DNA of 64,000 bases. Source: a virus. Location of the stretch: positions 11,040-75,039 of the IMG/VR virus record IMGVR_UViG_3300035162_004754, one strand, 5' to 3'. Below, in pieces: positions 10,510 to 43,091 of this stretch; position 1 is the first letter of the stretch, and each line of letters starts with the position of its first letter. The notes under the pieces are model-generated. The model did not search any database and was not told the origin of the DNA. It worked only from the letters and a program-made list of their open reading frames with translations. The position numbers and the translations under genes are program-made.

Positions 10510-11358
10510 ATGAAAATCGCAATCTTAGGATCTGCTGGACAGATCGGTGCTTATCTAGAAGATTACTTAAAAGAGAAAGGTCATGATGTAATTGGTGTTG
10601 ATATAGTTGAAGGTCCGCAGAATGATCTTCGTGTAACACCAAACACTTATGTTGAAGGCATTATAAAGAATGCTGACTTTGTTTTCTTCTTGGCATTTGA
10701 TGTTGGTGGATCACATTACCTGAAGAAGTATCAACATACTTTTCAGTTCATTAACAACAATACTCGTATGATGGCAAATACTTTTGCCTTACTTGAGAAG
10801 TATCGGAAGAGATTTATATTTGCATCTTCACAGATGAGTAACATGTCTTACTCTCCATATGGTGTGATGAAGAGAGTTGGTGAACTTCATACCACTGCAC
10901 TCAAAGGACTTACAGTGAAGTTCTGGAATGTCTATGGTATTGAAAAAGATATGGAGAAGGCTCATGTCATCACTGATTTCATTCGTAGAGGATTTGAGGA
11001 GGGTGAATTTGAGATGATGACTGATGGCACTGAAGAACGTCAGTTCCTCTATGCTGAGGACTGTTGTGAGGCACTAGAGACTGTGATGGAAAACTTTACC
11101 GACTTCAAACCAGAAGATCCTCTCCATATTACGTCTTTTAGTTCTACTTCGATTAAAGATGTCGCTTCTATTATTCAGGGACAATTTAATTTGATTGGTA
11201 AAACAGTTAATATTAAACCTGGTCTTGCAAAAGATAGTGTTCAGATGGATAAGAGAAACGAAGCAGACACTTACATTATGGGATGGTGGATACCTAAAAC
11301 TACTATAGATAGAGGGATTGCAAAAGTTTTTGAGGATATGAAAGGTGATTGGATTTAA
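10510..11358 (+). CDS. NAD-dependent nucleotide-sugar epimerase/dehydratase
   Basis: GSAGQIG Rossmann motif, YGVMK (YxxxK), NVYG, RQFLYAED. Confidence 0.9.
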   Translation: MKIAILGSAGQIGAYLEDYLKEKGHDVIGVDIVEGPQNDLRVTPNTYVEGIIKNADFVFFLAFDVGGSHYLKKYQHTFQFINNNTRMMANTFALLEKYRKRFIFASSQMSNMSYSPYGVMKRVGELHTTALKGLTVKFWNVYGIEKDMEKAHVITDFIRRGFEEGEFEMMTDGTEERQFLYAEDCCEALETVMENFTDFKPEDPLHITSFSSTSIKDVASIIQGQFNLIGKTVNIKPGLAKDSVQMDKRNEADTYIMGWWIPKTTIDRGIAKVFEDMKGDWI

Positions 11359-14623: not shown

Positions 14624-14671
14624 AGTCAGTAAGTCAAGAAACGAACACATTTCTTAACTGTTCTTAACACC

Positions 14672-14770
14672 CCGCAAACCAAGACCTCTAGGGTGTCTAA
14701 ACACGTCTTTCATATCCCAGACTTAGGGTGTCTGGGAAATAGTAACTCCACCATTCCCTGATGGTCTTAC
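14672..14770 (+). ncRNA. Structured psbA 5' leader, PhotoRC-II-like motif
   Basis: Three hairpins (AAGAC/GTCTT, TCCCAGAC/GTCTGGGA, ACCAT/ATGGT); two contain TAGGGTG and the third loop has complementary CCCT. Confidence 0.65.
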
Positions 14771-14786
14771 TTTTTCGTACAAAACA

Positions 14787-16075
14787 ATGGCTACAACTCT
14801 TTCAAGACAACAAACCTCTCCGTGGAATGATTTCTGCGAGTGGGTAACATCAACTAACAATCGTTTGTATGTTGGTTGGTTCGGTGTATTGATGATCCCA
14901 ACACTGTTAGCAGCAACTGTCTGCTTCATTGTCGCATTCATCGCAGCACCACCCGTCGATATTGACGGTATCCGTGAACCCGTAGCAGGTTCACTCATGT
15001 ATGGCAACAACATCATTTCTGGTGCAGTTGTCCCAAGTTCAAATGCAATCGGTCTCCACTTCTACCCCATTTGGGAAGCAGCATCTTTGGATGAGTGGCT
15101 TTACAATGGTGGTCCTTTCCAACTGGTAGTCTTCCACTTCCTTATCGGCATCTATGCTTATATGGGACGTGAGTGGGAACTTTCTTACCGTTTAGGTATG
15201 CGTCCATGGATCTGTGTTGCCTACTCGGCACCAGTCGCTGCTGCGAGTGCAGTATTCCTCGTCTATCCTTTCGGTCAAGGTTCTTTCTCTGATGCGATGC
15301 CTCTTGGTATTTCTGGTACTTTTAACTACATGCTTGTATTCCAGGCAGAACACAATATCCTTATGCACCCGTTCCACATGCTCGGTGTTGCTGGGGTATT
15401 CGGTGGATCTCTGTTCTCTGCTATGCATGGAAGTCTGGTTACATCTTCACTCGTCCGTGAGACGACTGAAACTGAGTCCCAGAACTATGGTTATAAGTTC
15501 GGTCAAGAAGAAGAGACCTATAACATCGTCGCAGCCCATGGTTACTTCGGTCGTTTGATCTTCCAATATGCTTCATTCAACAACTCACGTTCCTTGCACT
15601 TCTTCCTTGCTGCATGGCCCGTTGTTGGCATCTGGTTCACCGCACTTGGTGTTTCTACGATGGCTTTCAATTTAAATGGTTTCAACTTTAATCAGTCCAT
15701 CCTTGATGGTCAGGGTCGTGTGCTCAACACATGGGCAGACGTATTGAACCGTGCCGGTCTTGGAATGGAAGTTATGCATGAGCGTCAAGTTGTGCTTTGC
15801 GCTCTTTAAATCGGATGAATTGCTGGAAACCCCAAGTGGGCAATCAGCAGCCAAGTCCTGGATACATCCAGGAAAGGTTCAGAGACTACCTGAGGAATAC
15901 AGTTTCCTTAATAACAGGTTCAAGCGTCCGACACCAGAAATGGTGATGATATAGTCCAATCCTGATAGCAATATCAGATAGTTAGGGAAAGTTTAAGAAT
16001 GCACACAACTTCCCTCTTGACCTGGCATCAGCAGAATCTACTCCTGTAGCACTTACTGCTCCTTCCATCGGTTGA
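14787..16075 (+). CDS. psbA: Photosystem II D1 protein, spliced: join(14787..15785,15998..16075), 358 aa
   Basis: Canonical D1 up to MEVMHER; exon 2 restores [25 protein letters not shown]. Confidence 0.97.
15786..15997 (+). mobile_element. Group I self-splicing intron (212 nt, no ORF) in psbA
   Basis: Exon ends in U, intron ends in G; P1 GAGCGU/GUGCUU; P AATTGCTGGAAA, Q AATCAGCAGCC, R GTTCAGAGACTAC, S ATGATATAGTCC. Confidence 0.95.
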
Positions 16076-42520: not shown

Positions 42521-42549
42521 TTGACTAAATAGGGTATAGGGTCTATAAT
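42521..42549 (+). promoter_or_regulatory. Sigma70 promoter (plus CTAAATA) upstream of the riboswitch-like RNA
   Basis: TTGACT-17-TATAAT; predicted start near 42556. Confidence 0.8.
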
Positions 42550-42555
42550 GGACCT

Positions 42556-42782
42556 ATCGTTCATCAGAGGAAACTCTGACGCAAGTAAGTCGCGGAACGG
42601 AGCGTTCATCCCATGTTTGATATACTACTGTATACCACCCTCACTTGTTCTCAATCTAATGCAATTATGTTGCGGATGAAACAGAACGAAAATATTCCTC
42701 CCGAATATGAGGTGGAATTAATTGAGGTCATGAAGGAATCAAATCCTGATTGTTATTGGGACGCAATCGACTGAAGGAACGG
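42556..42782 (+). ncRNA. Glutamine riboswitch-like (glnA / Downstream-peptide) element, duplicated and nested
   Basis: ATCGTTCA, P2 TCAGAG-GAAA-CTCTGA, CGCAAGTA, AGTCG...CGACT, GAAG, GAACG; second CGTTCATCCC...GGGACGCAA copy inside. Confidence 0.7.
42613..42774 (+). CDS. Small ORF (53 aa) inside the RNA element
   Basis: Read manually: MFDILLYTTLTCSQSNAIMLRMKQNENIPPEYEVELIEVMKESNPDCYWDAID; GGAG at 42599-42602. Confidence 0.6.
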   Translation: MFDILLYTTLTCSQSNAIMLRMKQNENIPPEYEVELIEVMKESNPDCYWDAID

Positions 42783-42844
42783 GAAAACACGGATCCATCG
42801 AAAGATGAGAAGGTTAATTTTCACCCAACTTCAGGAGTAAACAA

Positions 42845-43012
42845 ATGAACACACTTCAAATGATTAAAAAGCAGATCAACAAAGCATCTGCACTGCATGA
42901 CGCACAAGTTCTTCACACCTCATATCGTGGTGTTGAGTATGATACTCGTTGTGTAAAATCAAACGAAACACACGGTACATTCTGTTATCGTGGTCGTGTC
43001 TACAATAAGTGA
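42845..43012 (+). CDS. DUF4278-like YRG-motif small protein (55 aa)
   Basis: Read manually: MNTLQMIKKQINKASALHDAQVLHTSYRGVEYDTRCVKSNETHGTFCYRGRVYNK; SD AGGAG. Confidence 0.75.
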   Translation: MNTLQMIKKQINKASALHDAQVLHTSYRGVEYDTRCVKSNETHGTFCYRGRVYNK

Positions 43013-43033
43013 GTCACTTACGTTAAAATTGTT

Positions 43034-43060
43034 AGGGGGGTTGCAAGACCCTCTTTTTTT
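43034..43060 (+). terminator. Terminator overlapping the next promoter
   Basis: AGGGGGGTT-GC-AAGACCCTC then T-run; TTGCAA...TATAAT overlaps. Confidence 0.6.
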
Positions 43061-43091
43061 ATGCTATAATCAATTGAAATATCGCAGTATT

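Follow-up and report, generated by a model that had tools for sequence, protein, structure and literature searches.

Can a riboswitch enclose a gene within its own aptamer, such that some of the nucleotides that would sense a metabolite also serve as codons? A typical riboswitch is a compact leader, located entirely upstream of the genes under its control. The question is raised by a locus in the 64,000-nucleotide stretch of viral DNA analysed here (the window; positions 11,040 to 75,039 of IMG/VR record IMGVR_UViG_3300035162_004754, a 75-kb fragment), which comes from a T4-like cyanomyovirus whose closest relatives are Synechococcus phages of the Kyanoviridae. Downstream of a predicted promoter lies an RNA element with the parts of a glutamine riboswitch, an open reading frame (ORF) of 53 amino acids (aa) within it, ORF53, and a second of 55 aa behind it, ORF55 (Table 1). 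An earlier reading of the sequence (the original prediction) had described the outer part as a glnA-type aptamer with a P3 helix that encloses a second, permuted core and an ORF, and this description is now supported by covariation and by the register in which the Rfam model aligns to relatives that have no ORF. The element appears to be a cyanophage variant of the glutamine-I riboswitch, with a well-supported anatomy and a mechanism that we infer.

Results

A recurrent RNA-plus-gene module

The region was matched by blastn in 415 phage records. For comparative analysis, 80 IMG/VR loci were fetched through ORF55, giving a sample that is unbiased as to RNA motifs, and more than 100 further loci were gathered with a pattern for the 3' module, the pattern itself fixing GGGACGCA and RAAGGAACGG. 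Parsed double aptamers from IMG/VR and GenBank phages numbered 192; the covariation tables comprise 97 distinct sequences, and several of the motif counts refer to 180 loci. With the enclosed ORF defined as a reading frame between CGUUCAUCC(C/U)-AUG and GGGACGCA, 179 of the 192 parsed loci contain one and 13 do not, the ORF-less double forms being ~86 nucleotides (nt) long and lying directly 3' of the same type of promoter. Because the arrangement recurs in 192 loci, with motif pieces that are near-invariant while the enclosed ORF has diverged to ~35% aa identity, it is beyond chance and constitutes a real, widespread and strongly constrained module of RNA and gene.

Anatomy of the element

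Every motif of the outer fold was recovered at the place the original prediction had given it. As in the Rfam Glutamine family (glutamine-I, RF01739) there is a P1 closing helix, a covarying P2 hairpin that follows after a single A, the two loop E junctions and a P3 helix. The junction CGCAAGUA, for which the Rfam Glutamine consensus is CGGAAGUA, contains the sole AGUA of the whole element. P2 varies freely with compensation (CAGAG/CUCUG, CCCCC/GGGGG and CUCAC/GUGAG occur), and outer P1 is invariant in all 97 sequences and so yields no covariation signal. The strands of P3 lie 175 nt apart, a loop far longer than in the RF01739 family; they nonetheless show compensatory change at two pairs (AGUCA/UGACU and AAUCG/CGAUU) together with G-U variants (GGUCG or CGAUU), with no disruptive variant in the 192 loci, and in other clades the helix is GGACGG/CCGCCC or, in locus L022, GAGCAUA/UAUGCUC. 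Covariation among cyanophage homologues was a check proposed with the original prediction for P1, P3 and the linchpin pair, and it is borne out by P3 only, since P1 and the linchpin never vary. On the 3' side GAAG alternates with AAAG, in step with a UGA or UAA stop codon of ORF53.

Both copies of the core read GCAA...GAACGG in place of the GGAA...GAACGC of the Rfam Glutamine consensus, as had been noticed before. The linchpin candidates C42582 and G42782, which could pair and are both invariant in our sample, occupy the positions of G and C in that consensus; in one marine row the junction linchpin position is A, with G. The consensus of the Glutamine-II family (Downstream-peptide, RF01704) likewise reads CGCA...GGAACGG, and the putative outer linchpin pair would be of C-G type in place of G-C, as in glutamine-II.

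The inner permuted copy, consisting of the hairpin GAACG-GAG-CGUUC, a UCCC/GGGA helix (P2') and CGCAA, is likewise present where it had been placed, and the presence of two CGUUC and two GAACG segments supports the claim of mutually exclusive P1 pairings. The inner hairpin has the form GAACG/CGUUC at 168 loci and CAACG/CGUUG at 12; no locus is mixed. In a tree built without the swap columns this exchange is scattered over at least five backgrounds (seven changes, at least five of them forced). The UCCC strand shows only C-to-U changes, giving G-U pairs, among the 97 sequences, and in another clade P2' covaries (UCCU/AGGA and UCCUC/GAGGA). The inner CGCAA junction has no GUA and hence no loop E half, so that the inner core lacks both halves. 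In L022 the inner CGCAA is lost and the inner P2' is a plain ORF-less hairpin, with the GAACG/CGUUC hairpin retained. An origin of the inner copy as a target-site duplication caused by insertion of ORF53 was considered and rejected, because ORF-less double forms exist.

Choice between a nested and a tandem fold

The four P1-type strands can be paired in two ways. The nested and the tandem structures share P2, P2' and P3 and differ only in the choice of partners between CGUUC and GAACG. In the nested structure, in which P1 pairs the first CGUUC with the last GAACG, 99.9% of cells in the 97 distinct sequences are paired and seven pairs have changes on both sides, a level that 0 of 500 shuffles attained; the compensatory changes fall in three helices (P2, P3 and the inner hairpin). 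In the tandem structure, eight of these sequences lack the junction-proximal pair in both P1 helices, and all 12 inner-hairpin variants (CAACG/CGUUG) break both tandem P1 helices while keeping the nested pairs. Moreover, the 5' unit alone has AGUA and the 3' unit alone has GAAG, so the halves of loop E, AAGUA (42583-87) and GAAG (42773-76), are joined only by the nested reading. For the compact ORF-less form, nearest-neighbour energies are -25.2 kcal/mol for the nested fold and -15.9 kcal/mol for the tandem fold without P3. When successive prefixes are folded, the first CGUUC/GAACG pairing is predicted to appear earliest and to give way once the second CGUUC emerges.

Searches with the Rfam Glutamine and Downstream-peptide models had also been proposed with the original prediction, and their outcome was divided. 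At the gathering thresholds (35 bits for Glutamine, 33 bits for Glutamine-II) no riboswitch was reported at the locus; in a permissive run the window scored 25 and 21 bits, respectively, both alignments spanning 42555-42606 in a compact register built on the first GAACG, and twelve homologous loci scored 20-30 bits on Glutamine. An insert of 175 nt is more than the model can span. The ORF-less relative L090 (86 nt, with 39 nt inside P3) is aligned in the nested register by the Glutamine model and reaches 41 bits. The RF01704 model describes the element less well, with scores of 21-31 bits against the threshold of 33 (31.1 bits for the best relative) and a window 3' hairpin of ~3 poorly matched pairs.

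On these grounds we consider it probable that the fold under selection is the nested one, a glutamine-I aptamer with P3 closed around a second core and ORF53. The main competing view would be of two independent glutamine riboswitches in series, a pseudo-cooperative doublet in which the AGUCG/CGACU complementarity is incidental, unit 1 (first CGUUC with first GAACG, no P3) controls ORF53, and unit 2 (second CGUUC with last GAACG, ORF53 in its P2 loop) controls ORF55. Exactly such sequences are treated unit by unit in a published alignment (Weinberg 2010, PMC2864571), and glutamine doublets are classed as pseudo-cooperative in a 2022 review (PMC9481103). Infernal places unit 1 of the window in the compact register under both the Glutamine and the Glutamine-II model, unit 2 alone scores 31.5 bits, and the pairing that defines unit 1 is the one predicted earliest during transcription. 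In addition, a group of loci represented by L027 carries a homing-endonuclease gene between the units that uses the ribosome-binding site of unit 1, and glutamine-II shows that a core lacking P3 can bind glutamine (PMC6698751). This view is nevertheless difficult to reconcile with the 12 inner-hairpin variants and with the covariation of P3 across 175 nt. Neither unit has both halves of loop E, the spacing of 2-5 nt between units leaves unit 1 without an expression platform of its own, the compact-register scores are all sub-threshold against 41 bits for the nested register, and the predicted energy is better for the nested fold by ~9 kcal/mol. Two complete aptamers, each with its own platform, are what a pseudo-cooperative doublet would comprise, and they were not found; we therefore regard this explanation as improbable.

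A different possibility is that the element uses both topologies, exchanging P1 strands between two ligand sites, the inner core being a glutamine-II-like pocket. The shift from tandem to nested would occur during transcription, or with glutamine and ribosome traffic, and would yield a cooperative or translation-integrating response. Such a toggle would explain why in 168 of 180 loci the P1 sequences are preserved exactly in the inner hairpin, where a plain hairpin could vary as P2 does, why this hairpin is retained even in L022 with the inner CGCAA lost, and why the inner CGCAA and GAACG-G are invariant, synonymous sites included; the predicted displacement of the first pairing by the second CGUUC also agrees with it. 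However, the 12 swap variants weaken the tandem helices yet persist in nature, the inner core has no loop E and its P1 end is closed by a loop of 3-4 nt, maybe too tight for ligand and linchpin, and the invariance may be partly inherited from duplication. We rate the strand-exchange explanation as rather unlikely, though less so than the doublet.

The enclosed gene

ORF53 begins in the inner loop and ends in the 3' strand of P3, with its Shine-Dalgarno sequence (SD) in the inner hairpin, as originally predicted, and the match to phrog_504 adds coding support. The distribution of GGAG between ORF-containing and ORF-less loci (Table 1) fits a working SD for ORF53. The AUG directly follows the 5' strand of P2', and the UGA stop is composed of the U of CGACU and the GA of GAAG. 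Among 134 distinct homologues, which are 13-72% identical to the window protein (~35% in many), a hydrophobic/helical pattern and a two-cysteine pattern are conserved. The AlphaFold 2 (AF2) model is a two-helix hairpin (predicted local distance difference test score, pLDDT, 83); a Foldseek search with it against PDB returned nothing at E <= 0.001, and in the ESM Atlas there were hypothetical viral clusters only. Both phrog_504 and phrog_545, the family of ORF55, are abundant phage protein families without an assigned function.

The C-terminus of the protein coincides with the RNA motifs. All homologues end (W/R)-D-A-(N/H/I)-D-stop, and in the window GGGA-CGCAA (42758-66) encodes W-D-A. In the body of the family, Asp is encoded by GAT in 81% of cases (GAC 19%), Asn by AAT in 75% and His by CAT in 73%. 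The tail, by contrast, has GAC for the final Asp in 135 of 138 sequences, AAC for 99 of 100 Asn and CAC for 35 of 36 His, with 134 of 136 Asn and His codons together ending in C. Since these synonymous sites are frozen where the RNA pairs, they are fixed by the RNA and not by the protein. From its sequence ORF53 is judged to be a real gene, the last five codons of which are dictated by the RNA.

Conservation of this kind bears on the notion that the aptamer pieces are decaying relics around inserted genes, and that only the promoter, the two small genes and the terminator are at work. Sub-threshold Rfam scores in the window, a window RNA that folds no better than its shuffles, and the invasion of several loops by homing endonucleases and other ORFs would all be in keeping with decay. 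Decay would not, however, leave RNA motifs near-invariant over hundreds of phages while the enclosed protein falls to ~35% identity, nor freeze synonymous sites exactly at RNA-paired positions; compensatory changes are found in three helices and ORF-less forms pass the Rfam threshold. The relic explanation is already disfavoured, and we find it scarcely credible.

Other genes occupy the loops of the element in some relatives. In L027, L042 and L079 the P2' loop holds a diverged phrog_504 relative (L027:657-857, L042:659-859) with a signal-peptide-like N-terminal extension (MKFL...), still ending R-D-A-(N/H)-D-stop. L027 (70-645) and also L028, L030 and L032 carry a gene for a 191-aa GIY-YIG-like homing endonuclease (phrog_314) inserted exactly into the inner hairpin loop, with the first GAACGG-AG before it and the second CGUUC after it; the gene draws on the GGAG that elsewhere belongs to ORF53, and 13 nt separate its stop from the AUG that follows. 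Remnants of this type of gene are present in L140, L185, L197 and L160. The P2 loop of the outer aptamer holds an HNH/EndoVII-like gene (phrog_1035) in L022 (234-900). In L081 (420-640), L083 and L102 a 66-aa phrog_6471 protein with a hydrophobic N-terminus is encoded in the first P2 loop, closed by UCUC/GAGA, and both P2-type loops hold ORFs in these three loci.

ORF55 and the region preceding it

The downstream 55-aa ORF and its two YRG motifs are confirmed. ORF55 scores 21.6 bits (E 2.9e-4) against DUF4278 (PF14105), below the Pfam gathering cut-off of 25.3, and 33 of 33 members of its family match DUF4278 at E <= 0.01 (best 2.2e-5); by profile comparison it is DUF4278-like and not a certified member of the family. 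The suggestion that the peptides act on glutamine synthetase is not supported, given this sub-threshold match and the fact that short DUF4278 proteins lack the C-terminal residues that IF17 needs for glutamine synthetase binding (Klahn 2018, PMC6212724).

Between the aptamer and ORF55 we identified a candidate sequestering hairpin formed by CUGAAG and CUUCAG. The first hexamer consists of the last two bases of P3 and the GAAG of loop E, and includes the ORF53 stop; the last two bases of the second are the start of the ORF55 SD, AGGAG, and the hairpin also captures G42781-G42783. The helix is present in the minimum free energy (MFE) structure of the isolated 3' segment of the window, L005 and L001, and in 103 of 104 unique variants the MFE structure has all six pairs, compared with 7 of 520 controls that had the 5' hexamer shuffled. 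Among unique platforms GAAG occurs with C in 34 and with U in 19, and AAAG with C in 0 and with U in 20. On 95 rows the RAAG/Y combinations were counted at 40, 10, 45 and 0, and a sign test on phylogenetically independent pairs gave a median p of ~0.016. For the whole ORF-less leader, the MFE structure holds the sequestering hairpin and not the outer aptamer (-32.3 vs -25.2 kcal/mol), which is what should be expected of a ligand-free OFF state. The predicted helix thus suggests a glutamine ON switch for ORF55; host glutamine riboswitches behave as ON switches (PMC6212724; PMC6698751).

The tip of the hairpin can carry a GNRA-capped stem, CAUC-GAAA-GAUG in the window, with the stem variants CUGC/GCAG, CAGC/GCUG, CUCG/CGAG and CACC/GGUG. 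It is found only in ~15 of 113 unique platforms, and the flanking GAGAAGGUUAA faintly resembles the 3' half of the aptamer. A small hairpin starting at the linchpin G was evaluated as a stand-alone platform and discarded, its stem lengths being no better than those of shuffles; this post-P1 hairpin remains only as the inner part of the sequestering hairpin. RNAalifold returned no consensus for the short platforms, whose loops align poorly.

Transcript boundaries and genomic context

The TTGACT-17-TATAAT promoter claimed for the element is present, and homologous loci have the same TTGACT...TATAAT at an equal distance from it. Transcription is predicted to start near 42556, and one RNA-library contig (42380-42594) runs through both the promoter and the predicted start. 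Several RNA-library contigs from two studies, assembled contigs only, end at 43067-43073, a weak hint of termination close to the terminator-like hairpin. The locus would be expressed as a two-gene early transcript, running from the promoter through the leader that encloses ORF53 and through ORF55 to the terminator. A second promoter-like site at 43041-43070 (TTGCAA-18-TATAAT with TG, 10/12 matches) shares sequence with the terminator hairpin and would drive the small gene that follows.

Elsewhere in the window there are a PhotoRC-II RNA (14655-14750, 77.6 bits) and a group I intron (15776-15978, 88.5 bits). A pattern scan of 185,579 species genomes gave matches that were nearly all due to chance, the true ones being phage-like contigs inside metagenome-assembled genomes (MAGs). 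Cyanophage-type loci L239/L325, L269 and L283 sit in contigs deposited as bacterial MAGs, one of them of 194 kb and assigned to 'Synechococcus sp.', another of 26 kb and assigned to Verrucomicrobiales; these are probably phage DNA binned with cells. A search of 301 picocyanobacterial genomes for GGAACGG-N1-6-CGTTCA did not turn up the double form, without thereby proving it absent from hosts; matches in host genomes were at the level of the reversed-pattern control, and 21 of 21 inspected were chance matches in coding regions.

Table 1. Positions of the features of the locus in the window.
Feature	Positions	Strand	Evidence or remark
Sigma-70-like early promoter, TTGACT-17-TATAAT	42521..42549	+	Promoter scan, 11/12 consensus matches
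Outer P1, 5' strand CGUUC	42558..42562	+	Pairs with 42777-81 in 97/97 sequences; matches Rfam Glutamine consensus
Outer P2 hairpin UCAGAG-GAAA-CUCUGA	42564..42579	+	Compensatory changes at all four closing pairs (97 sequences)
Junction CGCAAGUA, loop E 5' half AGUA and C42582	42580..42587	+	Near-invariant in 180 loci
P3, 5' strand AGUCG	42588..42592	+	Pairs with 42768-72
Inner hairpin GAACG-GAG-CGUUC (copies of both P1 strands)	42595..42607	+	GAACG 42595-99, loop 42600-02, CGUUC 42603-07
Putative SD GGAG of ORF53, in inner hairpin	42599-42602	+	155/167 ORF-containing loci, 0/13 ORF-less loci
Inner P2', 5' strand UCCC	42609..42612	+	Directly 5' of ORF53 AUG; pairs with GGGA 42758-61
ORF53, 53 aa, phrog_504, in P2' loop	42613..42774	+	phrog_504 E 1.1e-27, residues 1-53 of 53
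P2' 3' strand GGGA (42758-61) and junction CGCAA (42762-66)	42758..42766	+	Invariant in ORF55-derived unbiased sample
P3, 3' strand CGACU	42768..42772	+	Covariation with 42588-92; synonymous constraint on overlapping codons
Proposed sequestering hairpin (OFF state), CUGAAG 42771-76 with CUUCAG 42829-34	42771..42834	+	Predicted fold and RAAG/Y counts
GAAG 42773-76 (loop E 3' half), P1 3' strand GAACG 42777-81 and G42782	42773..42782	+	Rfam consensus GAAGGAACG
GNRA-capped hairpin CAUC-GAAA-GAUG at tip of sequestering hairpin	42796..42807	+	Stem covaries, 15 unique sequences
SD AGGAG of ORF55	42833..42837	+	All loci, 7 nt before AUG
ORF55, 55 aa, DUF4278-like, phrog_545	42845..43012	+	phrog_545 E 4.5e-35; motifs YRGVEY and YRGRVY
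Intrinsic terminator-like hairpin (43034-55) and U run	43034..43062	+	Terminator scan

Discussion

A model for how such an element might work can be drawn from its anatomy. According to the model, P3 would project away from the ligand site and close around the 175-nt insert, itself a three-way junction made up of the P1-copy hairpin, the P2'-like helix and the CGCAA junction. When glutamine is absent, CUGAAG-GAACGG would fold forward onto CUUCAG at the ORF55 SD and ORF55 would be off; when glutamine is present, the aptamer would be stabilised, CUGAAG-GAACGG withdrawn from the hairpin and the ORF55 site freed. Because the inner hairpin and P2' make up the start region of ORF53, and the sequestering strand contains the ORF53 stop, translation should oppose folding of the aptamer. 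Translation of ORF53 and formation of the aptamer would then be mutually exclusive, and a ribosome finishing ORF53 could open the ORF55 site by translational coupling. On this one mRNA, sensing of nitrogen and translation are probably in competition. The parts of the model that we infer are ligand binding, the sense of the switch, the ORF53-ORF55 coupling and any function of the inner core as a second glutamine site.

Several observations weigh against the nested fold and the switch built on it. The window RNA is not better folded than its shuffles (z -0.96), and its MFE structure recovers outer P1, P2 and the inner hairpin while P3 and P2' are missing. Being invariant, outer P1 and the linchpin are without covariation support, and the window itself scores a sub-threshold 25 bits in a compact rather than a nested register. 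The pattern behind the sample of 3' modules had GGGACGCA and RAAGGAACGG fixed. The swap sites of the inner hairpin are 8-10 nt apart and could recombine as a linked block, which leaves the number of independent events uncertain; the same could apply to the RAAG/Y sites, ~55 nt apart. Single P3-less marine aptamers also bear CGCCGACU-GAAGG, so the conservation of CGACU need not stem from P3 pairing alone. Finally, the sequestering helix is only 6 base pairs long and covers just two bases of the SD, and the sign of the glutamine response is unclear if translation of ORF53 also opens the ORF55 site.

A more elaborate proposal is an interlocked two-core sensor that reads both glutamine level and ribosome traffic, with P1 strand exchange as its toggle, and sets the ratio of ORF53 to ORF55. 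The ratio of two small proteins would then be set by host nitrogen status and translational capacity. We put this forward tentatively, as possible but doubtful; if the two-core, gene-inside-riboswitch reading is true, the regulatory architecture is one undescribed for any riboswitch class.

In hundreds of marine cyanophages an aptamer is maintained in which the long-range helices would enclose a translated gene, and the RNA core fixes the last five codons of that gene. If the nested fold and the sequestering helix are true, the widespread 'tandem' glutamine riboswitches would come to be read as single interlocked units, the element would be a natural case of ligand sensing set against translation on shared nucleotides, and production of the phrog_504 and phrog_545 proteins would be coupled to the nitrogen status of the host while Synechococcus and Prochlorococcus are being infected. 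The ORF-containing form escapes standard Rfam scans run at the gathering threshold, and phage riboswitch counts are therefore underestimates.

Glutamine riboswitches in T4-like cyanophages were already known (PMC9964418), and the double arrangement has been listed since 2010 as "tandem" riboswitches (PMC2864571). The supplementary glnA alignment of Weinberg 2010 (PMC2864571) holds marine scaffolds of the same type, with and without the inner ORF and with a YRG peptide next, aligned unit by unit with the P3 region unpaired; more recently, 157 glutamine doublets and 4 triplets were counted and assigned to a pseudo-cooperative class with more than one expression platform (Sherlock et al. 2022, PMC9481103). 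The layout had at first not been recognised as belonging to any description of the family. This holds for the nested topology, undescribed in the literature covered, and not for the double units with an inner ORF, which are in the 2010 alignment and the 2022 count. That literature yielded no account of a P3 and a loop E common to both units, of the nested topology, of the loop gene or of the platform; Ames and Breaker 2011, which lies outside it, may discuss the arrangement. What is new here is the CUGAAG/CUUCAG helix proposed to sequester the ORF55 ribosome-binding site.

Comparison with known systems

The closest relative is the glutamine-I riboswitch (glnA, RF01739), as in the leader of Synechocystis gifB, which encodes IF17 (PMC6212724). 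The phage element shares its P1 of CGUUC/GAACG, the P2 hairpin, the CG(G/C)AAGUA junction with GAAG, and the three-way junction with P3; it likewise sits 5' of a DUF4278-type small protein and would be expected to act as a translational ON switch. It departs from glutamine-I in having a putative C-G rather than a G-C linchpin, a P3 loop of 175 nt instead of ~4-10 nt that holds a second core and a gene, a window score of 25 bits against a threshold of 35, and a proposed SD-sequestering strand that consists of the P3 3' strand and loop E and not of bases after the linchpin. In glutamine-I P3 points off to one side and lacks a counterpart in glutamine-II (Huang et al., PMC6698751), which fits a large insert at this position.

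Glutamine-II (RF01704; Huang 2019, PMC6698751) resembles the element in its CGUUC...CGCA...GGAACGG and C-G pair, and the inner core in particular is glutamine-II-like. Its ligand pocket needs neither P3 nor loop E, and it too lies 5' of short DUF4278 peptides, in marine picocyanobacteria; the phage element lacks, however, the P2 pseudoknot hairpin that encloses GGAACGG. With tandem doublets (Weinberg 2010, PMC2864571; Sherlock et al. 2022, PMC9481103) it shares two aptamer-like units placed head to tail, but in the phage these are 2-5 nt apart, have one P3 and one loop E between them and show covariation for a nested topology. Two further parallels are by analogy. A stop codon inside a hairpin that masks the next SD, as proposed for ORF53, recalls translational coupling via SD-hiding hairpins. 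In group I introns with ORFs in peripheral loops, too, a loop that points off the core tolerates a gene, and endonuclease genes have entered other loops of the phage element; the latter, however, would be a riboswitch and not a ribozyme, and the start and the end of its enclosed gene are themselves aptamer strands.

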